DNA of 64,000 nucleotides, taken from contig JACOXT010000003.1 of assembly GCA_016182235.1 (NCBI GenBank), positions 451,488-515,487 on the forward strand, in the 5' to 3' direction. Source of the DNA: Candidatus Levyibacteriota bacterium (lineage in GTDB: Bacteria > Patescibacteriota > Microgenomatia > Levybacterales > UBA12049). The notes beneath the pieces were generated by a model. It had not been told where the DNA came from and did no database searches. It worked only from the letters and a program-made list of their open reading frames with translations. The position numbers were made by a program, and so were the translations under genes. Of this stretch, positions 2,363 to 56,097 are shown piece after piece (within the stretch, counting starts at the first letter, position 1; the number at the start of each line of letters is the position of its first letter).

Positions 2363-3564
2363 TTATGACTATTGGGATCAATGGATACGAAGCTGTAATG
2401 CCGAGGTTTGGATATGATTTTGAAACAAAACTGCCAAGAAGGGTCGGCAGCGGTGAATATTGTTTTGAACTCCTACTATATCTTAACAAAATTGATAAGA
2501 AAAACAAATATATAATATTTCTTCCCAAAACTCCAACAATGGATTTACCTAGGCAATCAGATAGCTGGCGATATAGGATTGTTGGGCCAAAGCGCTTTTG
2601 GACGATTTTTGGGTTATCAATGGAATTTTTGCTTAGGCGGTCTAAGGTAGACGTATTTTTCTCCCCAACTCATTATTTGCCTTTTTTTTTGCCAGTAAAA
2701 TCCGCTGTTTCTGTTTTAGATGTTTCCTTTATTCATTTTCCTAAGCTTTTTAAAAAGAAAGATCTGTATCAGCTTAAGAGTTGGACAGCTTATTCGGTAA
2801 GGAAAGCATCAAAAGTGTTAACGATTAGCCTGGCGTCAAAAGATGATATAATTAAGACATACAATGTTTCGAAGGAAAAGGTGATAGTTACATATCCCGG
2901 AGTAAAATCCGAAATTCAAATATCGAAATTCGAAACAAATGCAAAATTCAAAATGCAAAATTCAAAATTTCTTAAAGATAAGTACGGGGCTGAAGGGAAT
3001 TATATTTTGTTTGTGGGGACATTACAGCCCAGAAAAAATATAGTCCGTCTTATCGAGGCCTTTAGCCATATTTCTTCTTCTTTAATCATTAATCCTGCCT
3101 CGCCGGCAGGCAGGCCTTTATCGTTAATCATTGTGGGTAAAAAGGGTTGGTTATATGAGGAAATTTTGGAGACTCCCAAAAAGCTTAATATTGAGACGAA
3201 AGTAAAGTTTTTAGAAAATATTTCAGATGAAGATTTGCCTTATTTTTATAAAAACGCTTTATGTTTTGTTTTACCTAGCCTATATGAAGGGTTTGGCCTG
3301 CCAATTTTGGAAGCAATGAGATATGGGTGTCCGGTTATCACAAGTAATATCTCCTCGCTTCCCGAGGCAGGAGGAGACGCGGCTCTATACGTAGATCCTC
3401 TCAATGTAGACGATATTGCCAAAAAATTGGAATTAGTAATTAATAATGAAGATTTAAGGAAAAAACTTATAAAAAAAGGTTACGAACAAGTTAGGAAATT
3501 CAGTTGGGAGAAAACAGCAAGAGAAACATTAAGGGTATTGGAAGGTGTAGTAAATAATGAGTAG
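2359..3564 (+). CDS. GT4-family glycosyltransferase
   Basis: 401 aa with the C-terminal GT4 signature EGFGLPILEAMRYGCPVITS. Carries two in-frame mini-insertions (2905-2972 and 3082-3132). Confidence 0.85.
   Translation: MIMTIGINGYEAVMPRFGYDFETKLPRRVGSGEYCFELLLYLNKIDKKNKYIIFLPKTPTMDLPRQSDSWRYRIVGPKRFWTIFGLSMEFLLRRSKVDVFFSPTHYLPFFLPVKSAVSVLDVSFIHFPKLFKKKDLYQLKSWTAYSVRKASKVLTISLASKDDIIKTYNVSKEKVIVTYPGVKSEIQISKFETNAKFKMQNSKFLKDKYGAEGNYILFVGTLQPRKNIVRLIEAFSHISSSLIINPASPAGRPLSLIIVGKKGWLYEEILETPKKLNIETKVKFLENISDEDLPYFYKNALCFVLPSLYEGFGLPILEAMRYGCPVITSNISSLPEAGGDAALYVDPLNVDDIAKKLELVINNEDLRKKLIKKGYEQVRKFSWEKTARETLRVLEGVVNNE
2905..2972. repeat. AT-rich in-frame insertion with GAAATTC/AAAATTC tandem units in GT4
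   Basis: tccGAAATTCaaatatcGAAATTCgaaacaaatgcAAAATTCaaaatgcAAAATTCaaaatttc encodes SEIQISKFETNAKFKMQNSKF. Confidence 0.6.
3082..3132. repeat. GC-rich hairpin mini-insertion with perfect 9-bp direct repeat (TTAATCATT) inside GT4 CDS
   Basis: TTAATCATTaatCCTGCCtcgccGGCAGGcaggcctttatcgTTAATCATT. Repeat-to-repeat distance is 42 nt (14 codons), so it is in frame. Confidence 0.7.
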
Positions 3565-4127: not shown

Positions 4128-5018
4128 GTGATAGAACTCTCTATAATTATTCTTTCTTATAATACCAAAGATTTAACGCGTCGATGCATCCAATCAGTAA
4201 GAAAGCAATATAAAAAAGAACTGATAGACAAAAAATTGGAAATTATAGTTATTGACAATAATTCATCCGATGATTCTGCATCTTTATTGTCAGATCTTAA
4301 AAAAGAAATACTCGCCTCGCGGCGAAGCGGGTCAAATTTTACACTAATTCAAAATAGAGAAAATTTAGGATTTGCTAAAGGTTGCAATTTCGGCGCTAAA
4401 AACGCTAAAGGAAAATATCTTCTTTTTCTAAATTCTGATACTACAGTTCTAGATAGGGGATTTTTACGGATGACAGAATTTTTAGATAATCACAAAGAAG
4501 CTGGTATTTTGGGTGGAAGACTTCTGAATCCAAATGGTACTCCCCAACGATCGGGTGGAAAGTTTTATAACCTATGGTACCTTTTTTTAATGCTTTTAGG
4601 GTTGGAGGTGTTAGTAAGAAGATCACCTACTAAGATAGATAAGATTGATTGGGTAAGTGGGGCTTGCTTGATGATAGGAAAGAATCAATTCAATAATCTA
4701 TCTGGTTTTGATGAACATTTTTTCATGTACATAGAAGACATGGAATTATGCTATAGGATGAGAAAACTTGGTTTTTCAACTTATTTTTATCCTTTTGTTG
4801 GGATTGAGCATAAAACCCTAGGTAGCAGCAACAGATCATTTGCTATAATTAATATTTATAAGGGAATTCTCTATTTTTATTCAAAACACAAAAATCATCT
4901 AGAGTATTTAGTTGCCAAAACATTGCTTATCTCAAAAGCAGAAATTTTAATTTTGGTAGGATTTTTGACATTTAGCTCTGGGCTAAGGGATAGATACAGA
5001 AAGGCGGTAATGTTTTAA
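4128..5018 (+). CDS. GT2-family glycosyltransferase
   Basis: N-terminal IIILSYNTKD and VIDNNSSDDS with a DXD-like FLNSDT. Contains a GC-palindrome insertion at 4311-4332. Confidence 0.8.
   Translation: MIELSIIILSYNTKDLTRRCIQSVRKQYKKELIDKKLEIIVIDNNSSDDSASLLSDLKKEILASRRSGSNFTLIQNRENLGFAKGCNFGAKNAKGKYLLFLNSDTTVLDRGFLRMTEFLDNHKEAGILGGRLLNPNGTPQRSGGKFYNLWYLFLMLLGLEVLVRRSPTKIDKIDWVSGACLMIGKNQFNNLSGFDEHFFMYIEDMELCYRMRKLGFSTYFYPFVGIEHKTLGSSNRSFAIINIYKGILYFYSKHKNHLEYLVAKTLLISKAEILILVGFLTFSSGLRDRYRKAVMF
4311..4332. repeat. GC-rich palindromic core CTCGCCTCGCGGCGAAGCGGGT inside GT2 CDS
   Basis: Same core family as the copies at 29026-29047 and (reverse complement) 45518-45538. Confidence 0.6.
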
Positions 5019-9720: not shown

Positions 9721-9772
9721 ATGACCCGTTCGGCTAACGCTCAGGGTCATAGTGAGTGAAATCGAATCTATG
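9721..9772 (+). promoter_or_regulatory. conserved hairpin-containing 5-prime leader element (copy 1) immediately upstream of the GT4 start codon
   Basis: ATGACCCgttcggctaacgctcaGGGTCATagtgagtgaaatcgaatctATG. Homologous to 22892-22940. Confidence 0.45.
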
Positions 9773-24652: not shown

Positions 24653-27600
24653 TCAATTGTTATTTCTCTTAAAATGTTCTCTTATTTTTTCAACTAATTC
24701 AGGAGAGTAGTGTTCGCTTTGAATATTTCTTCTTCCTCTTAAAATTCTAAACCATTCAGGATGATCCTCTCGAAATTGGGTAGCGAATTCACTAACTCGG
24801 GGACTTATTATACCTAGTTCTTTAGCCAAAGTAGTTTTATTTAACCAACCAACTTCCAAATCTGAAGGCCTAGCATTCTCTTGTTTTATCAACGAGGTAA
24901 GTTCTGGAGATACAAAGTAACCAATGTGGCGACTTTCATTCCGAAATACTCCCAAAAGGGTTGGGTGAGATTCTTTATACTGACTTAACAATCTTAATAC
25001 AGAAGCTTCAGATAACCTCAGGTTATTAGATAGTTCAATCGTATTTGACCAGCCAGGTGGTGGCGCTACTACTTCCAAATACTCATTTTTTATCAGTTCT
25101 ACTAATTCAGGTGAAAAGTATTGAGACAGATGGTGTTTTCTTCCTACCAATACTTTAAAATATTCAGGATGTGATTTTCCGTATCTTTTCACGTAGAATC
25201 TAACATTGACAGCATCAATACCAAAAATTTGTTCTATATCATAACTATTCATCCATCCTGTTGGAGGGGTTTCTCTACCTATAATTTCATTTCTTAATAG
25301 CTTTTCTATTTCAGGAGCAACATATTCTCGTACCTTACTTTTTTGTCTTTCTCGATCAATATATATTCTAAAGAGCTGTGGGTAAGTTTTACGATACTCT
25401 TCAATTCTTTTATTTACAGTTGTTCTAGAAATGCCTAATTCTTTGTGAATAACACTATGGTCAATCCATCCTTCATCTGGTTTATTAAGAAGCAGAGTGA
25501 TTTCATCTCTAAGTAAAGTAGCAAGCTCTGGAGAAAAATGCTCAGAAATTCTACCGCCTTGTGTCGTTCTGAACAATTGAATTCCCTCGGCTTGAATGTC
25601 TCTATTTTTTCCTACAAGTGTATTAATAACAGCTGTACTGATTCCAAACTCTTTTCCTAGTAAACTTGGACGCACCCAGCCCTCGCTAGCAACTGGAACT
25701 TTATCTAATTTTGTCTTTAAATAATCAATGATAGAAGCTGATATATATTCTGCGACTCTTCCTCCTCTTTTTTTGAATATTCCAAACATTTCAGGATGAC
25801 TTTCTTTATATCTTGCAGTGAATCTTTTAATAGTTTTTCTATCAACTTTTAATAAACGGGCAGCCTCTCTTTCCGTTACCCAACCTTCAGGTGGAATGTC
25901 AGCAGTTACTAGATTGTCTCTTGTCTGTTGTCTAATTATACCAACTAATTCAGGAGATAAGTATTCAATTATTTGCCCTCCTTCTCTTTTGAAAACTCTA
26001 AAATATCTTGGGATATTTACTCGATATTCATTAATAATTCTTCTAAGCGTTGGGCGCGAGATATTTAACTCACTTTCGATTGAAGTTAAACTTTGCCATC
26101 CTTCTATTGAAGCCTGTAATTTTTCTTTTGTATCTTTGATCATTTCTACCAATTTGGGGGAAACATATTCGTACACCCGTCCTCTAGAGCTACGAAATAA
26201 TTTAAAATCTTCCGAGTATAAGTCTCTTAGGTTGTCTAAAATTCGACGCATAGTTTGCGGACCAACTCGATAAGTGTTATTTAAAGCTGTAATGCTTAAC
26301 CACCCTTCCTGAACAGGTTGATACTTTTGTTCAACCACCTGTTGAACAATTTTCATTACCTCTTCGGCTTCTGTGATAACTTTTAAGCCGTAAATCTCTA
26401 TTTGAGGGTAAAGTATAGTTCCGGTGTCGGTATCTTCTCTAGGATAATCTGGAGGATTATCTTTCCTAAATATATGGGCAGATTCTAGTATTTGAGCAAA
26501 TGAAACCGGAAAACGATTCGGATCTCCAAAATTGTCTATAAAGTCGACGATATAGGCATGCTTGAATGGATTGGCTGGGTCCGGTCTTAATACGCGTCCA
26601 GCCCTTTGTTCAGCAACCACAGGAGATGCAGTTGGTCGAAGATTAAGACATACATTGACGCTAGGATCATCAAAACCCTGTATAAGAAGATCGGCATTAC
26701 ATAATACCTTTATTTCCCCTGTTTTGTATTTTCTTAATATGGTTTTCTGTTCTGCTGGCAACTGATATCCGCTAACAACTGCTGCCTTTATACCATTTTC
26801 TTCAAAACGTTTAGCTAAATCTGTCGCATGATTAACTGTGACACAATAAGCTAATGCCTTTTGATCTAGGAACATAGCTTTATATAGATCGACCGCAGCT
26901 GAATTTCGAGTTGTTATGTTTATTGCTCGTTCAAGATCTTCATCCTTATACTCCCCTGTGCTTGTTATTTTAACTTCACTTAAATCAACATCTGTTTTTC
27001 CAATATACACAGATAAAGAAGAAAGCATCCCCAGCTCTATTGCTTCTCTAATAGGCATGCTATGAATCTCGGTATTTAGCAGGTTACCCAGGTGTTTATC
27101 TTTTGTGTATCTAGGAGTTGCAGTAAAACCAAGTTTTACAGCGTTTGTAAACTTGCGTACTGCTTCCATTCTTCTTGGGCTTAACGATTCATGTGCCTCA
27201 TCCAAAATAAGCAGTTCGTAATCTTCAGGTTTCATTTTTACCGACTCAACATCTTTTAAAAACGACGCATACGTAATAATTGTTACTGGTTTTTCATATT
27301 CTTTTGATCGCGCATAAACTTTTCCAGTTTCAACAGTCGGCGCAAACTCTTCAAATCTCTCTTCTGTTTGGTCAACCAAGATTTGCGTCGGCACAACTAT
27401 GAGAGTTTTAAGGTCGGTGGCTTCGACAAACTCGGTAAATACTACAGTTTTTCCAGAACCAGTAGGCAATCGTATATAACCTTCTGTAACTCCTTCCTCA
27501 ATAGATTTTCTCAATGCTTCAAATGCGTTCATTTGAGGATCAAAAAGAGTTCTCTCGTCTTCGTTTTGGGAATAATAGGTATTAATATATCTATCAAGTG

Positions 27601-27853
27601 CGTTGAGAGCATGTATTCTCCTTTCATATAATAGATTAGGTTCTTCATTTCTTTTTTGTCTGCGTAAAGTATCAACATACACTTTGTATCTGGTAGGAAA
27701 TTTTTCTTTAAGTTCGCTTGAAGTTGTATCAAATAGTACTCCATTATCTAACATTGGAGATATGGGACTACCTAAAGCTTCTGAAACATTGTTAACTTGC
27801 CTACCAAGTTGTTCTATTGTTTTTGGTTTTGCTCGCTCGATCATAGCCAGCAA
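24653..27853 (-). CDS. SF2 helicase (ResIII/XPB-like core) fused to eight tandem ~68-aa winged-HTH-like (excisionase/MerR-like) repeats
   Basis: Walker A LPTGSGKTV, DEAH box ILDEAHE and motif VI QRAGRVLR fall within aa 125-425. From aa 516, eight repeats follow the pattern EGW-x6-LAKELGISRxTV-x6-YRxxHPExF-x7-GGR-x3-EY(F)SPELVxxI. Confidence 0.85.
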   Translation of the reverse strand: MLAMIERAKPKTIEQLGRQVNNVSEALGSPISPMLDNGVLFDTTSSELKEKFPTRYKVYVDTLRRQKRNEEPNLLYERRIHALNALDRYINTYYSQNEDERTLFDPQMNAFEALRKSIEEGVTEGYIRLPTGSGKTVVFTEFVEATDLKTLIVVPTQILVDQTEERFEEFAPTVETGKVYARSKEYEKPVTIITYASFLKDVESVKMKPEDYELLILDEAHESLSPRRMEAVRKFTNAVKLGFTATPRYTKDKHLGNLLNTEIHSMPIREAIELGMLSSLSVYIGKTDVDLSEVKITSTGEYKDEDLERAINITTRNSAAVDLYKAMFLDQKALAYCVTVNHATDLAKRFEENGIKAAVVSGYQLPAEQKTILRKYKTGEIKVLCNADLLIQGFDDPSVNVCLNLRPTASPVVAEQRAGRVLRPDPANPFKHAYIVDFIDNFGDPNRFPVSFAQILESAHIFRKDNPPDYPREDTDTGTILYPQIEIYGLKVITEAEEVMKIVQQVVEQKYQPVQEGWLSITALNNTYRVGPQTMRRILDNLRDLYSEDFKLFRSSRGRVYEYVSPKLVEMIKDTKEKLQASIEGWQSLTSIESELNISRPTLRRIINEYRVNIPRYFRVFKREGGQIIEYLSPELVGIIRQQTRDNLVTADIPPEGWVTEREAARLLKVDRKTIKRFTARYKESHPEMFGIFKKRGGRVAEYISASIIDYLKTKLDKVPVASEGWVRPSLLGKEFGISTAVINTLVGKNRDIQAEGIQLFRTTQGGRISEHFSPELATLLRDEITLLLNKPDEGWIDHSVIHKELGISRTTVNKRIEEYRKTYPQLFRIYIDRERQKSKVREYVAPEIEKLLRNEIIGRETPPTGWMNSYDIEQIFGIDAVNVRFYVKRYGKSHPEYFKVLVGRKHHLSQYFSPELVELIKNEYLEVVAPPPGWSNTIELSNNLRLSEASVLRLLSQYKESHPTLLGVFRNESRHIGYFVSPELTSLIKQENARPSDLEVGWLNKTTLAKELGIISPRVSEFATQFREDHPEWFRILRGRRNIQSEHYSPELVEKIREHFKRNNN

Positions 27854-28518: not shown

Positions 28519-29757
28519 ATGCTACAGAGAATTAAGAATATTTATCACCTTGGAAATGGCATTCTGGGTAATTTGCGGTTTGGGTTTCCATCACATAAGC
28601 TTACTGTAATAGGCGTTACCGGAACTGATGGTAAAACAACAACTACAAGTCTAATATACCATGTCCTTTCTACATCTGGACGAAATGCATCGATGATAAG
28701 CTCAGTTGGGGCAGTAATAGGAGGAAGAGAGTATGATGTGGGATTTCATGTTACAACTCCTTCTTCCTGGGCGCTTCAGAAGTTTATTAAAGAGGCAGAA
28801 AAGGGCTTTCTGGTTCTTGAGACGACGTCTCATGCCTTGGATCAATTTAGAGTTTGGGGAATAAAATTTGACATTGGAGTTTTAACCAATATCACCCATG
28901 AACACCTAGATTACCACAAGACTTACCATAAATACGTTGAGGCAAAAGCAAAGCTTCTTGAAATGAGCCGAGTAGCGATTGTGAATAGAGACGACAAATC
29001 ATACCCGTTAATAAATTCGAAATTCGCTCGCCTCGCTGCGAAGCGGGAAATTCGAAATTCGAAATTAATTACCTATGGGATGAAAGATAATGCGGATTTA
29101 AATCCAAAAAAATTTCCATTTAAAACAAATATGATTGGAGAGTTCAATATTTACAACAGTCTTGCCGCAATAGCGGTATGTAGAGCTCTTGGTATTCCAG
29201 ATGAAGATATTAGAACGGGTTTAAAGTCATTTAAGCCTCCGATTGGCAGAGAAGAAGTAGTTTATAAGAAAGATTTTACCGTTATGATTGATTTTGCACA
29301 TACACCTAACGCCTTTGAGGAAATTCTGAGTTCAATTAAACCGAGTATAAAAGGCAGACTTATTCACGTATTTGGGTCGGCGGGACTTAGAGACAATACC
29401 AAAAGACCAATTATGGGGAGAGTCTCATCAAAATATGCGGATATTATTGTTTTGACCTCTGAAGATCCAAGATCGGAATCGGTTGAGAAGATTTCAGACG
29501 AGATAGAATCAGGAATAAAAATTCCAAACTCAAAATCTCAAATTACAAATAAATCCAAAATTCAAATATATAAAATTCCAAATCGACAAGAAGCAATTCA
29601 ATTTGCTATTAAGATTGCTAGAAAAGGAGATTTGGTCTTGACAACGGGGAAATCGCACGAAAAATCAATGAATTATGGACATGGAGAAGTTCCGTGGGAC
29701 GAGTACAGCGCTGTACGAAAAGCATTAAAAGGTTTGGGATTAAAGATTAAGGATTAA
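28519..29757 (+). CDS. murE: UDP-N-acetylmuramoyl-tripeptide ligase (MurE-type Mur ligase)
   Basis: P-loop VIGVTGTDGKTTT and a C-terminus GDLVLTTGKSHEKSMNYG resembling MurE GKGHE. Start set at ATG 28519 (MLQRIKN). Carries two in-frame mini-insertions (29014-29066 and 29515-29585). Confidence 0.75.
   Translation: MLQRIKNIYHLGNGILGNLRFGFPSHKLTVIGVTGTDGKTTTTSLIYHVLSTSGRNASMISSVGAVIGGREYDVGFHVTTPSSWALQKFIKEAEKGFLVLETTSHALDQFRVWGIKFDIGVLTNITHEHLDYHKTYHKYVEAKAKLLEMSRVAIVNRDDKSYPLINSKFARLAAKREIRNSKLITYGMKDNADLNPKKFPFKTNMIGEFNIYNSLAAIAVCRALGIPDEDIRTGLKSFKPPIGREEVVYKKDFTVMIDFAHTPNAFEEILSSIKPSIKGRLIHVFGSAGLRDNTKRPIMGRVSSKYADIIVLTSEDPRSESVEKISDEIESGIKIPNSKSQITNKSKIQIYKIPNRQEAIQFAIKIARKGDLVLTTGKSHEKSMNYGHGEVPWDEYSAVRKALKGLGLKIKD
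29014..29066. repeat. mini-insertion in murE: GAAATTC heptamer duplications flanking GC palindrome GCTCGCCTCGCTGCGAAGCGGG
   Basis: aaattcGAAATTC[gctcgcctcgctgcgaagcggg]GAAATTCGAAATTCGAAATT. In frame. Confidence 0.7.
29515..29585. repeat. AT-rich in-frame insertion in murE, homologous (~85% over ~50 nt, same reading frame) to 12418-12493
   Basis: Encodes KIPNSKSQITNKSKIQIYKIPNRQ. The tail tccaaaattcaaatata matches tccgaaattcaaatatc of the copy at 2905-2972. Confidence 0.65.
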
Positions 29758-31196
29758 TGATAAAAAAAATAAGATATATTCACTTCGCAGGGGTAAAAGG
29801 TGTTGGCATGGCTCCTCTTGCGATTATTGCCAAGGAAGCCGGAATAAATGTAACTGGCTCAGACATTGAAGACGAATTCATCACTGATGAGCTTCTTGAA
29901 AAAGCAAATATTAAGCCTTTTGTTGGTTTTTCAAAAAAAAATATCAAAGACCCAGATCTTGTTATTACAACAGGCGCACATGGCGGATTTGATAATTTAG
30001 AAGTTAAAGAGGCAAAGAGGAAAAAAATCAGAGTTATGACACAAGGCGAGGCAGTGGGTCTTTTTATGGATGGAACGATCTTTGGGAGAAGATTTACTGG
30101 AATTTCAGTAACTGGAACACATGGTAAAACGACAACAACAGCTATGGTAGCAACGATTCTTAAAGAAGCAAATCTTGACCCCTCATATGTTGTTGGAACA
30201 GGTTTTGTGCCGTCTCTTGGATCATCAGGGCACTTAGGGCAAGGAAAGTATTTTGTTTCAGAAGCCGATGAATATATAACAGAACCAAAATATGATAGAA
30301 AAATAAAATTCATGTGGCAAAACCCCAAAATTGCGGTTATTACAAACATAGAGTTTGATCATCCGGATGCTTATAAAACAATTGATGACGTAAAAGAAGC
30401 GTTCAAAAAATTCCCTAGCAAACTTCCAAAAGATGGCATATTAATTACCTGTGGCGATGATCATGAAGTAAGGAAGCTTTTTAAAGCTTATAAAGGGAAC
30501 AGAATTACGTATGGATTTTCAAAAGATAACGACTTTACAGTCAGCGAGGTCCGACCTTGTAATGACGGTAAGAAATATAAAGGCATACTAGAATTTAGGG
30601 TTATGAGAAAAAATCAAGATTTTGGAAAGTTCTATCTTAATGTTTTTGGCATACATAATGCTCTTAATGCCACTGCGGCATTTGTTGTGGGGCATAATCT
30701 TGGTTTGAATACACACAGTATTAAAAAAGGTTTGCTTGCATTTCAAGGCACAAAAAGAAGATCGGAATTTATAGGTGCACTAAAATCCGGTGCTAGGGTT
30801 TTCGACGATTACGCGCATCATCCAACAGAAATAAAAAACACACTTAGGGGATTTAAACAGAATTTTTCGAATATAAAATTAGTATGCATATTCCAGCCAC
30901 ATACCTACTCTCGAACAAAATCATTGTTCGAACAATTTTCTAAATCGTTTACGGATGCTGATATACTCATACTAACAAATATTTTTGCGTCCCTTCGTGA
31001 GAAAAAAGATCCTGAAATGTCATCTGAGCTTTTAGCAAATGAGGCTAGAAAATATAACAAGGAAGTATATTTCAAGCCTGCGCTTTCAGATGTGGTAAAA
31101 TATGTCAATTCTAAAAAATACGGGAAAGACACGATTATCATTACAATGGGAGCAGGAGACGTATATAAAATAAGTGAAGGGTTAAGATTACATTAA
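29757..31196 (+). CDS. murC: UDP-N-acetylmuramate--L-alanine ligase
   Basis: IHFAGVKGVGMAPLA and GTHGKTTTTAM with the Mur ligase C-terminal domain. Confidence 0.85.
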   Translation: MIKKIRYIHFAGVKGVGMAPLAIIAKEAGINVTGSDIEDEFITDELLEKANIKPFVGFSKKNIKDPDLVITTGAHGGFDNLEVKEAKRKKIRVMTQGEAVGLFMDGTIFGRRFTGISVTGTHGKTTTTAMVATILKEANLDPSYVVGTGFVPSLGSSGHLGQGKYFVSEADEYITEPKYDRKIKFMWQNPKIAVITNIEFDHPDAYKTIDDVKEAFKKFPSKLPKDGILITCGDDHEVRKLFKAYKGNRITYGFSKDNDFTVSEVRPCNDGKKYKGILEFRVMRKNQDFGKFYLNVFGIHNALNATAAFVVGHNLGLNTHSIKKGLLAFQGTKRRSEFIGALKSGARVFDDYAHHPTEIKNTLRGFKQNFSNIKLVCIFQPHTYSRTKSLFEQFSKSFTDADILILTNIFASLREKKDPEMSSELLANEARKYNKEVYFKPALSDVVKYVNSKKYGKDTIIITMGAGDVYKISEGLRLH

Positions 31197-31262
31197 TGTC
31201 ATCCCGAATTTATTTCGGGATCTAATTAGATGCTGAAGCAAGTTCAGCATGACAACTAATAA
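31197..31262 (+). terminator. two adjacent 8-bp-stem hairpins after murC (putative terminator or processing site)
   Basis: aTCCCGAAtttattTTCGGGAt followed by ATGCTGAAgcaagTTCAGCAT, nested within outer GTCAT/ATGAC complementarity. No clear U-tract. Confidence 0.35.
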
Positions 31263-31264
31263 AT

Positions 31265-32605
31265 ATGGAGAAGTTAATTATAAATGGCGGAAGGAAATTA
31301 AAAGGCAATATTTCGGTATCGGGAGCGAAAAATGTTGCTTTGAAAGCTTTGGTTGCCGCGTGTCTAACAAATGAGGAGGTAACTATTAAAAATATTCCAT
31401 TAATTACGGATTTTATGGTGATGGTCGCGATAATTCGAGATCTTGGCGGGCATGTTAAGCTTCTTGATCACACCGTAACTGTTCAGATTAAGGAATTTAA
31501 GAAAGAAAAAATTTCCTTAGACCAGGGAGCAAAAATAAGAACCTCTGCCATGTTTATGGCGCCGCTTCTCGCAAGAGTGGGAGTTGCAATTATTCCCAAT
31601 CCCGGAGGTTGTAGAATTGGAGCGCGCCCGATTGACAGAACAATAAAAGGAATAAAAGAATTAGGAGTAGAGGCTAAGTACAATAGGAGGGATGGGTATT
31701 TTTATCTTAAAAAAGAAAATAGAAAAAAAGACTGGAAAAAAGTTGTCCATAAGTTTGACAAAAACACCCATACCGGGACAGAAATAATGATCCTTGCTTC
31801 CACGCTTTTCAACGGAGAAGTTATTCTTAAAAATGCTGCGGAAGAGCCGGAAATTGATGAGCTTATAAATCTTTTAGTTCTCATGGGCGCCAAGATTGTA
31901 AGAACAGGAAAAAGAGAAATCACAATAGACGGCGTAGGAAAACTTCATGGAGCGACATTTACAATCGCTCCGGATAGGAATGAGATAGTAACCTTCGCTG
32001 TTGCGGGAATTGTAACAAAAGGAGATATTTTTGTTCTTGGCGCTCATAATGTTGATCTTAAAGAATTTATCAAAAGGCTAAAAAGTGCCGGAGGAGGCGT
32101 TGAGGAAAGGCAAGACGGAATACGTTTCTTTTACAAAGGACCTCTTACAAAAACATACATAAATACATCTTTTTATCCCGGGTTTATGACAGACTGGCAA
32201 GGTCCTTGGGCGGTTCTTATGACTCAAGCGAATGGAGATTCGGTGATTCATGAGACAGTATATGAAAGCAGGTTCGGATATGTAAAGGAGCTTAGAAAAA
32301 TGGGCGCAAATATTACTTTTTTTAATCCGAAGATTGTAAGCCCCGATAACGTTTATAATTTTAATCTTTCCGACCGGATCCCGGACTATTATCACGCAAT
32401 AAAGATTAAGGGTCAAATAAGGCTTCATAACGCGGTGGTTGAGATTTCAGATCTTCGGGCAGGCGCGTCTCTTGTTTTGGCTGCATTGTCTTCTCCCAAC
32501 GAAAGCGTTATTTTTGGCGTGGAGCATTTGGATAGAGGCTACGAGAATTTTGAAGAAAGATTAAAAAGTTTGGGAGGTGAAATTAAACGTGTTAAAAATG
32601 AATAA
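31265..32605 (+). CDS. murA: UDP-N-acetylglucosamine 1-carboxyvinyltransferase
   Basis: N-terminus MEKLIINGGRKLKGNISVSGAKNVALKAL and length 446 aa match MurA. Confidence 0.9.
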   Translation: MEKLIINGGRKLKGNISVSGAKNVALKALVAACLTNEEVTIKNIPLITDFMVMVAIIRDLGGHVKLLDHTVTVQIKEFKKEKISLDQGAKIRTSAMFMAPLLARVGVAIIPNPGGCRIGARPIDRTIKGIKELGVEAKYNRRDGYFYLKKENRKKDWKKVVHKFDKNTHTGTEIMILASTLFNGEVILKNAAEEPEIDELINLLVLMGAKIVRTGKREITIDGVGKLHGATFTIAPDRNEIVTFAVAGIVTKGDIFVLGAHNVDLKEFIKRLKSAGGGVEERQDGIRFFYKGPLTKTYINTSFYPGFMTDWQGPWAVLMTQANGDSVIHETVYESRFGYVKELRKMGANITFFNPKIVSPDNVYNFNLSDRIPDYYHAIKIKGQIRLHNAVVEISDLRAGASLVLAALSSPNESVIFGVEHLDRGYENFEERLKSLGGEIKRVKNE

Positions 32606-37291: not shown

Positions 37292-40024
37292 ATGAATAAA
37301 CTGCAAAAAGAAGCAAAAGAAAAAATTAAAGAACTTATCGGTAAGTATGAGTTAGCTGTTGTGGCGGGGCAAATTAAGAAGTACACGGAAGAAGAGACAA
37401 AAAATTCTTTTATAAAACCTCTTTTTGAAGCTCTAGGATGGGATTTTTCAGAAAAAAACGAAGTCTCTGCGGAAGAAAATATTATATCTTCAGGCAGAGT
37501 TGATTACGGATTTTATATTAACGGTCGAGCCAAATTTTATCTTGAAGCAAAAAAGTTAAAAGCGGATTTAAATTCGGAAGAATTTGCCCGCCAAGCAATT
37601 AGATACGGCTTCAATAAGGGCGTTACTTGGGCTGTTTTAACTGATTTCGAAAGCATCAAGGTCTTTAATTCCCAAGCTCTTTCAAATTATTTAGGGGATA
37701 AACTGTATTTTGAAATAAATTATTCGGAATATTTAGAGTGTTTGGATCAATTATGGCTCTTGTCAAAAGAAGCATTTGAAACTGACCTAATTGATAAGGA
37801 GGCTGAGAAAGCAGGTAAGAAATTACAAAAAGTTCCTGTTACTGAGCTTCTCTATAAAGATTTAAATGAATGCAGAAAAATATTGACAGAATATTTGGGT
37901 AAATGGAATCCGAAAGTGACAAAAGATCTTTTAGATGAAGGTGTACAAAAATTACTAGATAGATTAATTTTTATCAGAGTTGCCGAAGATAGAAAAATTG
38001 AACAGAATATTTTAGTTCCTTTAATTAATCAGTGGAGAGCTTTTGCTGGTAAGAATAAACCCGAGCTGTATGAATCCATGGCTGACAAATTTAGAGAGCT
38101 TGATGATATTTACAATTCCAATCTATTTACTCCGCATCCTTTTGAGAAATGGGAGGACGATGGCGGAGCGCTAGAGAAAGTCATAAAAATTCTACACGGA
38201 AAATCAGGTTATTATGAATATGACTTTAGTGTTATGCCGGCTGATGTTTTAGGAAGTGTCTATGAAAATTACTTGGGACATAAATTATCTCAGTCTAAAA
38301 AAGGACTGACGTTGGATAAAACAGCAAATAAAAGAAAAGAACAGGGAATTTACTATACTCCAACTTTTATAGTTGATTATATTGTCAGAAATGCTCTAAA
38401 ACCAGTTTTGGATAAGTGCAGAAGCATTAATGATTTGAAGAAAATTAAAGTTTTGGACCCTGCTTGCGGTTCGGGATCTTTTCTCATAAAAGCGTTGGAA
38501 GTTATAGCGGAAAAGTACAAGGATTTTAACGCTCCAATAAATGAGTTTACGAAAATACAAATAATTTTAGAGAATTTATATGGAGTTGATTTGGATATGC
38601 AAGCGGTAGAAATTGCAAGACTTAATCTACTGGTTAATACTCTCGAGGAAAAAGGCAAACTGCCCTCTTTGGACAAAAATATAAAGAATGGCAATTCGTT
38701 GATTTCAGGAACAGACGAAGAACTGGAAAAATATTTCGACAAAAACTTCAGAGACAAAAAACCTTTTAATTGGCAAGAAGAATTTCCGGAAGTCTTCAAG
38801 CAAGGTGGATTTGATGTAATAATAGGCAATCCTCCATACATTTTTGCTCGGGGTGGTAATTTTGATGACAATGAAAAAAAATATTATTATGACAACTATA
38901 AACTTCAAAAATATCAGATTAATACGTACCTTCTTTTTATAGAACGCACATACAACTTACTTAAACAGAACGGGAGATTAGGGTTCATAGTTCCTAACAA
39001 CTGGTTAACGATAAGCACTTTCAAGAATCTTAGAGAATTTATCCTGAAGGAGATGGGGGGAGTAAGAATAATTAATACTGTTGAAGCAGTATTTTCTCAG
39101 GCAAGTGTTGATACTTGCATTCTAATATTTGAAAAGTCAAAACCAACAGAAATTCAACTTGGAGAGCTAAGGGAAAATCAAGCACCATTAATGAAAAAAT
39201 ACAAGCCAGAAGATTTTTATGCGAACGATTTTATAATAAATATAACAAAAATATCTAGCCTTAAAGGCAATGCTATATTGAACAAAATAGATAGCAATTC
39301 CCTTTCTCTTAGTGACATAGCAAGAGTGTCTTCTGGGTTAAAAGCTTATCAGGAAGGCAAAGGTAAGCCGATTCAAACAAAAGAGATTAAAGAATCAAGA
39401 AAATATCATTCTCAGAAAAGACTAGATAAAACTTATTTTCCATATTTACAAGGTAGCGATGTCAAACGATATTTTCTTGACTGGTCTAAGGAATACTTAA
39501 GTTATGGTGATTGGTTAGCCGAACCAAGAAAATCTGTTCCCTTCAACGGCCATAGAATCTTAGTTCGGCAAATACCTTCTTCTTTACCTTACTGCATAAA
39601 TGCTGCATATACAGAAGATTACTATTTTAACGATATTAACAGTATGGTTATTTTCGATTCGATTAGAGGATACGATCTTAGATACATTCTGGGTATTATA
39701 AATACTAAGTTAATTTCCTATTGGTTTGCAAATGTTTTTGATAAATTTCAACGTAAAATATTCCCACAATTTAAGGTAAATGAGCTAGCTAAATTTCCGA
39801 TTTATAAGGCAGAAAAAAATAAACAAAAAGCAATTATTGAATTGGTTAATAAGATAATGCAGCTTAAGAAAGATTTAAAAAAATTAGATGCAAATTCCAA
39901 TAAATGGGTCAAGATAAAAGAAGAAATAGAAAAAACGGACAAAAAAATTGATGAAGAAGTCTATAAACTCTATGGTCTCACGCAGGAAGAAATTAGAGTT
40001 GTGGAAGATAATAACGAGAACTAA
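37292..40024 (+). CDS. Type IIG/IIL restriction-modification enzyme (MmeI-like): N-terminal PD-(D/E)xK nuclease, gamma-class N6-adenine methyltransferase, C-terminal TRD
   Basis: N-terminal ...GRVDYGF..FYLEAKK (D...E-x-K), methyltransferase motif I VLDPACGSGSFL, motif IV IGNPPY. 910 aa, close to the MmeI family size. Confidence 0.75.
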   Translation: MNKLQKEAKEKIKELIGKYELAVVAGQIKKYTEEETKNSFIKPLFEALGWDFSEKNEVSAEENIISSGRVDYGFYINGRAKFYLEAKKLKADLNSEEFARQAIRYGFNKGVTWAVLTDFESIKVFNSQALSNYLGDKLYFEINYSEYLECLDQLWLLSKEAFETDLIDKEAEKAGKKLQKVPVTELLYKDLNECRKILTEYLGKWNPKVTKDLLDEGVQKLLDRLIFIRVAEDRKIEQNILVPLINQWRAFAGKNKPELYESMADKFRELDDIYNSNLFTPHPFEKWEDDGGALEKVIKILHGKSGYYEYDFSVMPADVLGSVYENYLGHKLSQSKKGLTLDKTANKRKEQGIYYTPTFIVDYIVRNALKPVLDKCRSINDLKKIKVLDPACGSGSFLIKALEVIAEKYKDFNAPINEFTKIQIILENLYGVDLDMQAVEIARLNLLVNTLEEKGKLPSLDKNIKNGNSLISGTDEELEKYFDKNFRDKKPFNWQEEFPEVFKQGGFDVIIGNPPYIFARGGNFDDNEKKYYYDNYKLQKYQINTYLLFIERTYNLLKQNGRLGFIVPNNWLTISTFKNLREFILKEMGGVRIINTVEAVFSQASVDTCILIFEKSKPTEIQLGELRENQAPLMKKYKPEDFYANDFIINITKISSLKGNAILNKIDSNSLSLSDIARVSSGLKAYQEGKGKPIQTKEIKESRKYHSQKRLDKTYFPYLQGSDVKRYFLDWSKEYLSYGDWLAEPRKSVPFNGHRILVRQIPSSLPYCINAAYTEDYYFNDINSMVIFDSIRGYDLRYILGIINTKLISYWFANVFDKFQRKIFPQFKVNELAKFPIYKAEKNKQKAIIELVNKIMQLKKDLKKLDANSNKWVKIKEEIEKTDKKIDEEVYKLYGLTQEEIRVVEDNNEN

Positions 40025-45006: not shown

Positions 45007-46143
45007 ATGAAAGTTGTAGTAATAGGAGGCCATTTATCTCCAGCGTTATCCGTAATCGAAGCGCTGCCAAAAGAGGTAAGTATATTATTTGTTGGAAGAA
45101 AATATTCTTTTGAGGGAGATAAGTCAAAATCTTTGGAATACGAGACCATTAATTCTCTTAAGTTTCCTTTTGCTGAGATTACTACAGCAAGGTGGCAAAG
45201 AAAGTTTACAAGACACACTATTAATTCGCTCTTTAAATTTCCTATTGGAGTTATTCAGTCGTTATTTATTTTATTAAGATTTAAGCCAGATGTTGTTGTT
45301 GGATTTGGAGGGTATGTGTCTCTGCCAGTTGCTATATCTTCTTTTATCCTAAGAGTTCCCGTTGTAATTCACGAGCAGACTTTGGAGGCAGGTTTTTCAA
45401 ATAGAATAATTTCGGTATGGGCTTCTAAGATATGTATATCATGGGAGTCATCACGCTCATTTTTTCCAAAAGAAAAAACGGTATTGACAGGAAACCCGAT
45501 ACGGAAGTTCGAAGTTCCCGCTTCGCAGAGAGGCGAGCGAAGTATGAAGTATGAAGTTGATAAGAAGGTTCCTACAATTTATATAACCGGTGGAAGTTCG
45601 GGATCGCATTTTATCAACAAATTAGTCGAAGGTTGTATTGGGGAACTGCTGAGAAAATTCAACATAATCCATCAGATTGGAGAGTCAAAATTTGGCGATT
45701 TTGAACGCTTAGTAAAGCTTCGTGAGACATTTTCTTTTGATCAACGCAAAAGATATATTTTAAAAAAATTTGTTAAACCGTCCCAAGTTGCCTCAATTTT
45801 AAAATATTGCGATTTAGCTATATCACGTTCGGGTATAAATACAATAACAGAACTTATTTATTTTGAAAAACCAGCTATTCTAATACCCCTCCCATTTTCT
45901 CAAAATAACGAACAATTGAAAAACGCAAGATTTTTGGAGACGTTCAAATTAGGAAAAGTATTGTCTCAAAACGAAGCTGACTCAAGAAGCTTATCTCAAA
46001 TGGTAGACTTAATATTTGATAATATAAAAGAGCATAAGTTAAATGAGAGCGAATCAGCGAAGAGGCAAATAGAAAATGCGGCTCAAAATATAGTTAAGAT
46101 TGTTGAATATGTCGGTGAAACAAAGAAAGTCCCGAAATTATAG
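45007..46143 (+). CDS. murG: undecaprenyldiphospho-muramoylpentapeptide beta-N-acetylglucosaminyltransferase
   Basis: N-terminal VIGGHLSPALSV and a GT28 C-terminal domain. Carries the GC-palindrome insertion at 45504-45558. Confidence 0.8.
   Translation: MKVVVIGGHLSPALSVIEALPKEVSILFVGRKYSFEGDKSKSLEYETINSLKFPFAEITTARWQRKFTRHTINSLFKFPIGVIQSLFILLRFKPDVVVGFGGYVSLPVAISSFILRVPVVIHEQTLEAGFSNRIISVWASKICISWESSRSFFPKEKTVLTGNPIRKFEVPASQRGERSMKYEVDKKVPTIYITGGSSGSHFINKLVEGCIGELLRKFNIIHQIGESKFGDFERLVKLRETFSFDQRKRYILKKFVKPSQVASILKYCDLAISRSGINTITELIYFEKPAILIPLPFSQNNEQLKNARFLETFKLGKVLSQNEADSRSLSQMVDLIFDNIKEHKLNESESAKRQIENAAQNIVKIVEYVGETKKVPKL
45504..45558. repeat. mini-insertion in murG: GAAGTTC/GAAGTAT heptamer duplications flanking GC palindrome CCGCTTCGCAGAGAGGCGAGC (reverse orientation of the murE core)
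   Basis: GAAGTTCGAAGTTC[ccgcttcgcagagaggcgagc]GAAGTATGAAGTATGAAGTT. In frame. Confidence 0.7.
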
Positions 46144-53169: not shown

Positions 53170-56097
53170 ATGTTCGAAGTTGTAGATCCAAAATTAAATT
53201 TCCCCAAGCTCGAAGAGGACCTTCTTAAAATGTGGTACAAAGAGGGAATTGTGAAAAAATATCTTCAAAAAAATAATTCTTCCAAGAAGAAATTTTCTTT
53301 TCTTGATGGGCCAATAACTGCTAACAATCCCATGGGTGTTCACCATGCCTGGGGAAGAACTTACAAAGATCTCTGGCAAAGATTTTGGAACATGAGAGGC
53401 TATAAGCAAAGATTCCAGAATGGATTTGATGAACAAGGGCTTTGGGTCGAGGTAGAAGTTGAAAAAGAATTGGGTTTGAAGAATAAGAAAGATATTGAAA
53501 ATTTAATTCCGGGCAATAAGTTTGCAAGTCTTGAGAAATTTATAAATCTTTGTAAAGAAAGAGTAAGAAAATTTTCTAAGATTCAAACCGAACAAAGCAA
53601 GAGGCTTGGATATTTTATGGACTGGGACAACTCTTATCATACCTCTTCGGATCGAAATAACTACACAATCTGGAATTTCTTAAAAATCGTCAATGAAAAA
53701 GGCTGGCTTTACAAGGGACGAGACAGTGTGCCGTGGTGCCCAAGATGCGGGACTGCAATTTCTCAACATGAAATTTTGACTGAGGAATACAAAGAACTTA
53801 CTCATAAAACAGTCGTTTTTAAACTTACAATTAAAGGGAGAAACAAAGAATATTTACTTGCTTGGACTACAACGCCCTGGACAATTCCGGGAAATGTCGC
53901 GCTTGCAGTTGACAATAATCTATCGTATTGGAAGATGGAAAACGCCAAAGGCGAGAAAATAATTATTGTTAATCCGACAGCAAATGGTGATCTTAATAAG
54001 GAAGCTATGCTTGTTAATAGGCTAGGATTAATAGAAGGTTATGTAAAAGTAGAGGAACTTAAGGGAAAAGATCTTGTAGGACTTGGATACGAGGCGCCTT
54101 ATGATAGTTTGCCTTCTGTTAAAAAAACCCTTGGGAATTATACGCATCGGGTAGTTGCAACTGATCCCCAAGTATTACCGATTAATCCAGCTGAGGGTAC
54201 TGGAATTGTCCATATTGCTCCTGGCGCGGGCGCGGAAGATTTTAAGCTTAGCAAGAAAGAAAAAATACCTGCAATTGAGGAAATTGACGAAAGTGGTGTA
54301 TTTATAGACGGATTTGATTTTATGTCTGGAAAGCATGTTAAAAAAGCAATGCCTCAGATTTTGGAGGACCTTGAAAAACGTAACTTTGCTTTTAAAATTT
54401 TTGACTATATGCATCGCTATCCTACATGCTGGAGGTGTAAAACTGAGTTAGTCTGGAGAGTAGTTGATGAATGGTATATAGCAATGGATAAAGCATTAAA
54501 GTCAAAAGTCAAAAGTCAAAAGTCAAAAGTTGAAGAAAATAAAACATATAGAGAACAGATGATTGAGGTAGCTAAGAAGATTAACTGGATACCTAAATGG
54601 GGATTAGATAGGGAACTTGATTGGCTTTCCAACATGCACGATTGGCTTATAAGCAAAAAGCGTTTTTGGGGACTGGCATTACCAATTTGGGAATGCAAAG
54701 AGTGCGGAAGTTTTGAGGTGATTGGCGGACGGGAGGAGCTTAAAGTTCGAGCATTTAGCGGTTGGAAGGAGTTCGATGGAAATAGCCCCCATAGACCATG
54801 GATTGATCAAATAAAAATAAAATGCAAAAATTGTAGATCAATAATGTCACGAATACCTGATGTTGGAAACCCATGGCTTGATGCAGGTATTGTTCCTTTC
54901 TCAACATTGCCCGCTGGTTGGTTTCCAGCAGATTTTATTACTGAAAGTTTTCCAGGGCAATTTAAAAATTGGTTTTACTCTCTTATTGCAATGGCAACAG
55001 CTATTAAAAATGAACCTCCTTTTAAAACAGTTTTGGGGTTTGCTTCAGTTCGAGACGAAAAAGGAGAGGAAATGCATAAATCAAAAGGAAATGCTATTGA
55101 ATTCAATGAAGCCGCAGGCAAGATTGGGGGAGACGTCATGAGGTGGCTTTACACGACTCAAAAGCCTGAACTCAATCTTAATTTTGGTTATGGACCCGCA
55201 ACAGACGTAAAAAGAAGATTCTATTTAATACTTTGGAACAGTTATAAATTTTTTGTTGACTACGCAAAAGCTTCTTCATGGGAATGTGGAAGAAATGTTA
55301 AAGATTTAACAATACTAGATAAATGGATTCTGGCAAGATTAACAGAAGTAGTTTTCTTGGTAAATGAATCTTTAGAAAGATTCGATGCAAGTCGCGCCTC
55401 TTTCGCAATAGAGGAATTTGTAGTGAAAGATTTTTCTACATGGTACATAAGAAGATCTCGAGACAGGGTTTCGCCAATTTCAGACGCAAATGACAGAAAT
55501 ACTTGTTTTTCAGTTATGTACGGAGTCTTGGTTACGCTTTCCAAATTACTTGCTCCTTTTACGCCATTTATTGCTGAGGAAATATTTAGAAATTTGGCAA
55601 ATGAAGAATCAGTACATTTACAAAGTTATCCGAAGGGCGACAAGTCGCTATTGAATAGAAATCTTATTGAGGATATGAAGAAAGTAAGGGAAGTTGTCGA
55701 AGCTGGACACGCAAAACGAAAAGAAATTGGGATAAGAGTAAGACAACCGCTACCCAAATTTTCAATTTTCAATTTTCAATTTTCAATTGAAGAGAAGCTA
55801 ATAGATCTTATTAGGGATGAGTTAAATGTTAAAAATGTTATTTTCAAGATGAGAAAAGGACCGTTTTCTGTGGAGTTCGATACGGAGATTACAAACGATC
55901 TTAAAAATGAAGGTGAGGCAAGAGAAATAGTTAGAAGAATTCAGCAGGAACGAAAAATTATAGGTACGACATTGAATGAGAGGGTAAATGTCACTTTGGA
56001 GAGTTGGCCGGCTTCATATAGCAATTACATTAAAAGAAATGCGTTAGTTGGAAGTCTCAAAAAAGGAGACGAATTTTCGGTCGCAAGGCAGAAATGA
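53170..56097 (+). CDS. ileS: isoleucyl-tRNA synthetase, type 2 (eukaryote/archaeal-like)
   Basis: FLDGPITANNPMGVHHAWGRTYKDL..GFDEQGLWVE matches the type-2 IleRS N-terminus. KMSKS-like HKSKGN present. Carries in-frame repeat tracts at 54498-54531 and 55757-55789. Confidence 0.85.
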   Translation: MFEVVDPKLNFPKLEEDLLKMWYKEGIVKKYLQKNNSSKKKFSFLDGPITANNPMGVHHAWGRTYKDLWQRFWNMRGYKQRFQNGFDEQGLWVEVEVEKELGLKNKKDIENLIPGNKFASLEKFINLCKERVRKFSKIQTEQSKRLGYFMDWDNSYHTSSDRNNYTIWNFLKIVNEKGWLYKGRDSVPWCPRCGTAISQHEILTEEYKELTHKTVVFKLTIKGRNKEYLLAWTTTPWTIPGNVALAVDNNLSYWKMENAKGEKIIIVNPTANGDLNKEAMLVNRLGLIEGYVKVEELKGKDLVGLGYEAPYDSLPSVKKTLGNYTHRVVATDPQVLPINPAEGTGIVHIAPGAGAEDFKLSKKEKIPAIEEIDESGVFIDGFDFMSGKHVKKAMPQILEDLEKRNFAFKIFDYMHRYPTCWRCKTELVWRVVDEWYIAMDKALKSKVKSQKSKVEENKTYREQMIEVAKKINWIPKWGLDRELDWLSNMHDWLISKKRFWGLALPIWECKECGSFEVIGGREELKVRAFSGWKEFDGNSPHRPWIDQIKIKCKNCRSIMSRIPDVGNPWLDAGIVPFSTLPAGWFPADFITESFPGQFKNWFYSLIAMATAIKNEPPFKTVLGFASVRDEKGEEMHKSKGNAIEFNEAAGKIGGDVMRWLYTTQKPELNLNFGYGPATDVKRRFYLILWNSYKFFVDYAKASSWECGRNVKDLTILDKWILARLTEVVFLVNESLERFDASRASFAIEEFVVKDFSTWYIRRSRDRVSPISDANDRNTCFSVMYGVLVTLSKLLAPFTPFIAEEIFRNLANEESVHLQSYPKGDKSLLNRNLIEDMKKVREVVEAGHAKRKEIGIRVRQPLPKFSIFNFQFSIEEKLIDLIRDELNVKNVIFKMRKGPFSVEFDTEITNDLKNEGEAREIVRRIQQERKIIGTTLNERVNVTLESWPASYSNYIKRNALVGSLKKGDEFSVARQK
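54498..54531. repeat. (AAAGTC)x5 hexamer tandem repeat inside ileS (encodes KSKVKSQKSKV)
   Basis: Seen directly: aaagtcaaaagtcaaaagtcaaaagtcaaaagt. Confidence 0.8.
55757..55789. repeat. (AATTTTC)x4.7 heptamer tandem repeat inside ileS (encodes KFSIFNFQFSI)
   Basis: Seen directly: aattttcaattttcaattttcaattttcaattg. Confidence 0.8.

Follow-up and report, generated by a model that had tools for sequence, protein, structure and literature searches.

The SDR elements of Nostoc punctiforme are reportedly dispersed, hairpin-forming sequences of 21-27 nt that often lie within tandem heptamers and are often nested within copies of themselves. They are said to have been proposed as the smallest mobile elements and to be essentially confined to one subgroup of the cyanobacteria, and heterocystous cyanobacteria are likewise said to carry heptamer repeats, the STRRs. 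Published accounts regard SDRs as short interspersed palindromic repeats of unestablished origin, state that SDR5 inserts precisely into HIP1 and describe cyanobacterial STRRs as 7-bp repeats able to form hairpins. Here we describe a similar arrangement inside the cell-wall gene murG of a Candidatus Levyibacteriota bacterium, in a stretch of 64,000 nt of contig JACOXT010000003.1 that we refer to as the window. A GC-rich core of 21 nt (45517-45537) interrupts an array of heptamers in this gene, and we consider it probable that this core belongs to a dispersed, very small and non-autonomous type of hairpin module and that it was copied into a pre-existing heptamer array encoding the linker between the two MurG domains. 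The murG copy is one visible instance of a phenomenon that is both genome-wide and lineage-wide.

The product of the host gene is a GT28 UDP-GlcNAc transferase that matches the solved MurG structures 7D1I, 3S2U and 1F0K, and its 378 residues are identical to those of an NCBI-annotated protein from a metagenome-assembled genome (MAG; 600,876-bp contig). The segment 45504-45558 reads GAAGTTCGAAGTTC CCGCTTCGCAGAGAGGCGAGC GAAGTATGAAGTATGAAGTT, that is, two copies of GAAGTTC, the core of 21 nt, two copies of GAAGTAT and a terminal GAAGTT, and is translated as ..GNPIRKFEVPASQRGERSMKYEVDKKVPT..; the sequence given in a preliminary description of the window was exact on re-reading, as was the translation RKFEVPASQRGERSMKYEVDKK. 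The stretch of MurG that includes the seven residues encoded by the core is KFEVPASQRGER. Tandem Repeats Finder (TRF) placed the perfect GAAGTAT tandem at 45539-45557. Two registers fit the murG sequence equally well, namely 45518-45538, which had been used earlier, and the register one base to the left, which keeps the phase of the heptamers: AAGTTCG AAGTT / CCCGCTTCGCAGAGAGGCGAG / CG AAGTATG AAGTATG AAGTT. The core is predicted to form a stem of CGCTTC and GAGGCG with one T.G pair, the counterpart of which on the other strand is a C.A mismatch, and by direct reading all six of its frames are free of stop codons. The RNA fold of the sense strand at this site was somewhat more stable than those of shuffled sequences (z = -2.06). 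Rfam gave no match at the site up to E = 10, and only one tRNA across the whole window.

We obtained the DNA of 80 MurG orthologues from metagenomes and of 5 from assemblies, and defined the linker as the segment between the GNPxR and (I/V)Y(I/V)TGGS motifs (n = 76, including that of the window). A strong heptamer array without a GC core was present at the same position in 23 of the 76 linkers, usually with a length of 33 nt (4.7 units), and a periodicity with a lag of 7 was seen in 36% of the linkers, as compared to at most 4% for every other lag from 3 to 11. The units of the empty arrays were specific to the lineages: AATTTTC in L121, the closest relative (4.7 copies), GAATTCA in L122, AAATTTC in L124, AAATTCA in L126, AAATTCG in L151 and AAAATGG in L159. 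These six arrays are uninterrupted over 33 nt, as is that of L205, which reads AAGTTCG ATGTTCG ATGTTCG AAGTTCG AAGTT and shares its unit with the murG gene of the window. Without the core, the array of the window is AAGTTCG AAGTTCG AAGTATG AAGTATG AAGTT, which is also 33 nt, and the filled site exceeds the empty site by exactly 21 nt (seven codons), with no extra heptamer. Since the unit at this site is nearly perfect within a lineage and differs from one lineage to the next, the sequences imply that heptamer arrays undergo rapid concerted evolution inside essential genes while the frame is kept.

Because empty arrays of 33 nt exist and the filled site is longer by 21 nt only, the heptamers are native sequence that served as the landing context, and the array at murG is, judging from the alignments, older than the insertion of the core. 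The preliminary description had argued that the heptamers are local and not carried with the element, and this agrees with our finding that they differ between sites and are missing from a copy in a GT2 gene. It had also attributed them to duplication or slippage of the target at each integration, an interpretation that is not borne out: tandem heptamers occupy this position also in orthologues of MurG that lack the core, the very observation that the description had named as refuting it.

The core itself was recovered from the linkers of two other MurG genes. In L201 (P0009) it has the orientation seen in the window, AAGTTTG AAGTTCG AAGTTCG / CCCGCTTCGCCGCGAGGCGAG / AAGTTCA, and in L202 (P0004) it is inverted and surrounded by other units, CAATTTA CGATTAA / CTCGCCTCGCGGCGAAGCGGG / CAATTTA CAATTAA. 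P0004 and P0009 are mutually closest, with 78% identity outside the linker, and the MurG protein of the window is closest to P0002 (76% outside the linker), whose site is empty. At least six other GC hairpins occupy the same site, in L130 (TCCCGACTCAGTCGGGACA, a decayed form of which is found in L175), L181, L186/L187, L203, L204 and L155, while the linker of L133 contains an in-frame double hairpin of 58 nt related to an intergenic element of the window (31197-31254). Since the core in both orientations and other hairpin families occupy one and the same site, the MurG linker array has to all appearances been struck repeatedly by several families of small hairpins.

A search of the window with the murG 21-mer, in which up to three mismatches were allowed, yielded three sites, where none was expected from 100 shuffles; these are located in murG, in murE and in the GT2 gene (Table 1). 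The preliminary description had the murG core as the reverse complement of the other two and hence inserted in the opposite orientation, which the mismatch-tolerant search confirmed. The murE and murG sites form an inverted pair of 45 nt that is 87% complementary in a repeat search. MurE orthologues read INSKF-EIRNSKL at the site, a peptide that (AAATTCG)n encodes; the protein of the window is longer by exactly seven residues. Neither heptamers nor a direct repeat were present in the flanks of the GT2 copy. The core is read as PASQRGE in murG, as ARLAAKR in murE and as LASRRSG in the GT2 gene, and thus in three frames and on two strands. Because both orientations and all reading frames are used, the module is on this evidence defined at the level of DNA or RNA and not as a peptide; a module acting at the protein level was rejected, since the copies are read in differing frames and orientations.

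An AlphaFold2 model of the MurG protein, built from an alignment of 20 sequences (mean predicted local distance difference test score, pLDDT, of 83.9), places residues 161-189 in a coil between a strand of the N-domain (158-160) and a strand of the C-domain (190-193). The pLDDT values of the core-encoded residues 173-177 are below 50 and are the lowest of the protein. In an alignment with 7D1I the insert falls between GNPVR and the GGS loop, which is the G-loop of the C domain. The model and the alignment both support the earlier suggestion that the insertion maps to the inter-domain linker. The linker varies in length from 22 to 38 residues among the orthologues, so that seven additional residues are most likely tolerated, and according to the model the residues PASQRGE in this disordered segment are most likely neutral for MurG.

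To assess the distribution of the core, we scanned the contigs of one GTDB genome per species with the pattern CCGCTTCGCNGNGAGGCGAG, and all copies described below were thus gathered with an exact pattern. At least 120 loci matched, of which about nine, in genomes of high GC content, are probably chance. The same pattern had no matches in the viral contigs of IMG/VR, and there is accordingly no sign of a phage vector. The consensus of the core with its flanks is gc/CCGCTTCGCNGCGAGGCGAG/cc. Among the matches listed, to which all counts in the remainder of this paragraph and the next refer, 72 of 126 copies from other genomes fall in open frames 150 codons or more in length, where all six combinations of frame and strand are used and sense and antisense copies number 34 and 38, respectively. 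Genomes titled Microgenomates have 21 of their 25 copies in open frames of 125 codons or more, as opposed to only 2 of 13 and 2 of 14 in two MAGs titled Bacteroidota, a contrast consistent with copies persisting within genes in genomes that offer little intergenic space.

Most copies outside the window are not in heptamer arrays. Nine copies were flagged as lying in arrays, and for seven of these the best lag was 35, equal to 21 + 14; six of the seven match at 10-13 of 13 bases and the remaining one (L020) at 7 of 13. The array units around the core vary locally and include AACTTTG, GAAATTG, AAATTTG and CAATTTC, among others. In 19 of the 126 copies the core, CCGCTTCGC, is held in the loop of a CCTGCC..GGCAGG hairpin, CCTGCCTGCCGG^CAGGCAGG, which belongs to the same family as the element at 3094-3114 of the window. 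In 12% of the copies the flanks pair as a stem with 7 or more of 8 bp, as compared to only 0.6% of control positions, and tandem or inverted copies of the core itself were seen in L051, L080 and L102.

The core is present in independent assemblies, including the complete MAG chromosomes OY970292.1 and CP181398.1. The titles of other carriers include Patescibacteria, Sphingobacteriales and Lentimicrobiaceae, but the spread across phyla is to be read with care, as organism titles such as that of L062 (CAZRWL010000002.1, 'uncultured Gammaproteobacteria') and of other 'binchicken' MAGs may be unreliable. A fuzzy search for diverged copies recovered mostly the core's own reverse complement and a few variants, the core being quasi-palindromic and the copies having been collected by exact pattern. 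In a MAG titled Lentimicrobiaceae, CAZBDF01 (L006, L066, L080, L082 and L093), the core forms the centre of a MITE-like repeated palindrome of about 90 nt, CTACAATACTAAATCGCCTACGGCGAA..core..TTCCGCGTAGCGGATAAAGTACTGTAG, and L080 and L082 each have a pair of facing cores in the manner of a REPIN doublet.

We propose that the heptamer array encoding the inter-domain linker of MurG would already have been present in Levybacteria and their relatives before the core arrived. The module would preferentially enter DNA that is prone to form structures, either heptamer arrays or the tips of other GC hairpins. Entry into heptamer arrays would keep the 7-nt phase, since 21 is three times seven, and the copies that survive within genes would be those that keep the frame, 21 nt being seven codons, in tolerant surface loops. 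Mobilisation would occur in trans, perhaps via a single-stranded DNA or RNA intermediate, of which the strand asymmetry of the T.G pair in the stem is the sole hint.

Several points weigh against this proposal. Presence/absence polymorphism between near-identical genomes was not seen, so that recent mobility is unsupported, and no transposase, reverse transcriptase or HUH nuclease was detected in a Pfam scan of 50 open reading frames (ORFs) in the window. L201 has the AAGTTCG unit of the window in addition to the core, and vertical inheritance instead of a repeated hit could account for this. In a Levybacteria MAG, JACPAR01, all three copies have identical AACTTTG flanks, and these may fit a composite in which the flanks travel with the core, or else a preference for a single unit. 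The stem is a predicted one and the copies were collected by exact pattern, and the likeness to the Nostoc elements is one to the SDRs as reportedly described by Elhai et al. 2008.

With this in mind, the core resembles the SDR elements in several respects. Its 21 nt fall within their range of 21-27 nt, it is multicopy, both within the window and across the GTDB loci, and it is embedded in heptamers in murG, murE, L201 and L202, with seven of the nine flagged copies listed in phase. Nesting is seen in related loci, namely in the three loci with self-copies and in the CCTGCC..GGCAGG loops of listed copies, and not at murG. The likeness is one of size, dispersal, context and nesting, the strings of the core to be set beside SDR1-8 being CCGCTTCGCNGCGAGGCGAG and CCTGCCTNGCCGGCAGGCAGG, and the hairpin of the core is a predicted one. 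Unlike the SDRs, the core resides in a member of the Levybacteria (Patescibacteria) with a GC content of about 36% and is therefore not confined to cyanobacteria, and its copies are mostly located inside protein-coding genes, including the essential murG and murE, in frame. By analogy, we would class it best as an SDR-like, trans-mobilised hairpin module of 21 nt that targets heptamer arrays and hairpin tips, an assignment that we think is reasonably likely to be right.

Other small palindromic elements are more distant. In mitochondria, the mobile GC clusters of yeast, which are found in var1 among other places, and the byp elements of Magnusiomyces are short GC-rich palindromes dispersed in AT-rich genomes that occur in either orientation, also in coding sequence. 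They are 30-50 nt in size, organellar and eukaryotic, and the byp elements are skipped by the ribosome. In contrast, every copy of the core that was examined keeps the frame and lacks stop codons, which makes translation a simpler reading than bypass. Rickettsia palindromic elements insert in frame in protein-coding genes, where they are tolerated in surface regions; they are about 100-150 bp long, restricted to Rickettsia and not associated with heptamers. Their intragenic, in-frame habit is the only feature shared with the core, which is 21 nt long and lacks CGTC, the tag with which the Rickettsia elements are mentioned in PMC3733652. MITEs and classical transposons, which have terminal inverted repeats and duplicate their target site on insertion, differ in that the filled site of the core is larger by exactly 21 nt and that the GT2 copy has no flanking direct repeat. 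Among the papers listed by our literature searches, none pairs heptamer or palindromic elements with Patescibacteria or the candidate phyla radiation.

The chief rival to a mobilised module is an enzyme-independent process, in which the copies would have spread without dedicated mobility by ectopic gene conversion or by template switching during replication between similar, slippage-prone arrays and hairpins. Copying would be driven by microhomology at stalled forks, and the orientation would be free as the TTCGAA-type units are near-palindromic. The murE and murG arrays are indeed near-identical (GAAATTC versus GAAGTTC), the concerted evolution of the arrays implies frequent misalignment and repair within them, and both the shared flanks of the three JACPAR01 copies and the failure to find a mobilising enzyme in the window favour such a process. 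On the other hand, the boundaries of the 21-mer are constant across unrelated array units, hairpin loops and sites free of repeats, and no foreign heptamers were transferred beside the core in the window, L201, L202 or L069. Conversion moreover requires flanking homology, which the GT2 and nested sites do not have, and we therefore regard this class of explanations as improbable, although it deserves to be taken seriously.

A more far-reaching idea is that both the heptamer arrays and the hairpin modules of 21 nt (three times seven) are made by a single dedicated DNA-writing or repair activity with a 7-nt register, which would act at slipped arrays and hairpin tips, be common to Patescibacteria, some Bacteroidota and heterocystous cyanobacteria, and continually rewrite the surface loops of essential proteins. 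Such an activity would explain why the arrays have a period of 7 only and typically a length of 33 nt, and why the units in MurG are homogenised within lineages with the frame intact. We consider this idea speculative and rather unlikely.

REP sequences and REPINs are also short, multicopy, GC-rich palindromes. If the core were of this type, a RAYT, which is an IS200/IS605-like tyrosine transposase, would mobilise it from another locus of the genome. Many REPs have G.T pairing in their stems, as does the core, and intragenic REPs also occur (PMC3733652); the inverted doublets in L080 and L082 add to the resemblance. But the two REP superfamilies are defined by an unpaired GTAG or CGTC tag (PMC3733652), and this tag is absent from the core, from its immediate flanks and from the consensus. 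REPs are predominantly extragenic, whereas all three copies in the window are in ORFs and the listed copies in Microgenomates are mainly intragenic; the core is tied to heptamer arrays, and a RAYT was not among the 50 window ORFs in the Pfam scan. On these grounds an origin as a REP-type element is quite unlikely.

The idea that each integration duplicates or slips a local 7-mer, with the tandem heptamers as a by-product in the form of target-site duplications, draws on the fact that murE and murG have different heptamers, which flank the core on both sides, and a 7-bp staggered cut could in principle build an array over many cycles of insertion and excision. It is largely refuted by the core-less arrays of 33 nt at the orthologous MurG site, in L205 even with the unit of the window, and by the difference of exactly 21 nt between filled and empty sites in both MurG and MurE. 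The repeat-free flanks of the GT2 copy, the location of most other copies outside arrays and the abundance of core-less arrays in the window leave this explanation very little room.

We find it harder still to believe that the segment was selected for a function of its own, be it as a peptide loop of MurG or, in the mRNA, as a hairpin modulating expression within the dcw operon. The stability of the RNA fold and the conservation of the in-frame insert in L201 point in that direction, but the closest MurG orthologue lacks the core, the murG site accepts both orientations, the three genes use three frames, and sense and antisense copies are about equally frequent among the matches listed. In addition, the residues are modelled as disordered and the site has no Rfam match. 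An artefact of assembly or sequencing (adaptor or chimera), in favour of which nothing speaks but the oddity of an identical 20-mer in many assemblies, was rejected. The core is in frame inside conserved genes across independent assemblies, which stem from many projects, differ in technology and include closed chromosomes, and it occurs in variants and nested contexts.

If a mobilised module is the correct explanation, the smallest class of mobile DNA, which has so far been described essentially from one group of cyanobacteria, also operates in the candidate phyla radiation. With almost no intergenic space in these genomes, the elements would live in essential genes and be translated. They would provide a checkable source for many of the short, low-complexity insertions in the proteins of these bacteria, and a reason for caution with alignments, phylogenies and structure predictions built on such proteins. 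Orthologous sites that are empty, filled in either orientation or filled by other families would constitute a natural experiment on the target rules and the mobilising enzyme.

Table 1. Positions of the hairpin cores, heptamer arrays and host gene in the window.
Feature	Position	Strand	Remarks
murG ORF (GT28 UDP-GlcNAc transferase, host gene)	45007..46143	+	378 aa; Pfam PF03033 + PF04101
Left segment of native heptamer array, AAGTTCG AAGTT	45505..45516	+	uninterrupted 33-nt array of AAGTTCG unit in L205
GC-rich hairpin core of 21 nt, CCCGCTTCGCAGAGAGGCGAG	45517..45537	+	predicted hairpin; encodes P171-E177 (PASQRGE)
Right segment of native heptamer array, CG AAGTATG AAGTATG AAGTT	45538..45558	+	TRF, 2.7 perfect copies
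murG core, 21-mer search	45518-45538	+	0 mismatches
murE core, 21-mer search	29026-29046	-	1 mismatch to murG 21-mer
GT2-gene core, 21-mer search	4310-4330	-	3 mismatches to murG 21-mer
murE copy with array, TAAATTC GAAATTC / GCTCGCCTCGCTGCGAAGCGG (29026-29046, core on - strand) / (GAAATTC)2.9	29012..29066	-	encodes INSKF[ARLAAKR]EIRNSKL
GT2-gene copy, CTCGCCTCGCGGCGAAGCGGG	4311..4331	-	encodes LASRRSG, third reading frame
Second hairpin family, TTTAATC ATTAATC / CCTGCCTCGCCGGCAGGCAGG (3094-3114, 21 nt) / CTTTATC GTTAATC ATT	3081..3132	+	in frame, GT4 gene 2359-3564
ileS array, (AAAGTCA)4.7	54498-54530		in frame; perfect
ileS array, (AATTTTC)4.6	55757..55788	+	in frame; perfect; encodes KFSIFNFQFSI

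Tandem arrays were enriched in the window for a period of 7 alone, with five observed versus none in shuffled sequences, and no enriched arrays were found for periods 5, 6 and 8-12. In-frame heptamer arrays are present in ileS, murE, several glycosyltransferase genes and a PMT-like gene. The first of the two ileS arrays in Table 1 is a net addition of 11 residues (33 nt) relative to the orthologues; the second, like the MurG array, equals the length of non-repetitive sequence in more distant orthologues. With the MurG linker array of L121, a different genome, ileS shares an identical string of 34 nt, AAATTTTCAATTTTCAATTTTCAATTTTCAATTG. Longer, degenerate, AT-rich heptamer tracts (AAAATTC-like, up to 9.9 copies) are located in frame at 2904-2969 and 12420-12494, in two GT4 genes, and at 29518-29583 in murE, where the tract is near the C-terminus and represents a net insertion relative to many orthologues.

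Besides the three copies of the core, the window contains several other GC hairpins. The hairpin at 3094-3114 sits amid NTTAATC heptamers and encodes NPASPAGRP. At 10388-10426, two copies of AAATATC are followed by TCCATTCGACAAGCTCAGGATAAA, in frame in the GT4 gene 9752-10987 (..KYQISSIRQAQDK..), and the SIRQAQDK motif of this gene also occupies the MurG linker of L182. A GC-rich block of apparently nested hairpins (PSFAKAASFAEVATKAESAGK) at 1940-2005 lies within an ORF (1796-2362) that matches the N-terminal GT4 domain only, just under the Pfam cut-off, and abuts a full GT4 gene. The intergenic double hairpin of 58 nt at 31197-31254 has inverted ends, TGTCATCCCGAATTTATTTCGGGATC-TAATTAG-ATGCTGAAGCAAGTTCAGCATGACA, and is flanked by a Mur ligase gene (29757-31196) and a gene of the EPSP-synthase family (MurA-like, 31265-32605).

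The window has a GC content of about 36% and a positive GC skew throughout, and its genes comprise a dcw cell-wall and division cluster and many glycosyltransferase genes; the neighbouring MurE and IleRS proteins are named Candidatus Levybacteria at NCBI. Few genes lie on the minus strand; one of these (24653-27853) encodes a ResIII/DEAD helicase of 1066 residues followed by several helix-turn-helix modules, which account for the direct-repeat families D2-D4. A fused restriction-modification enzyme of 910 residues, similar to Eco57I and MmeI (type IIG), is encoded at 37292-40024 within the region of cell-wall genes.

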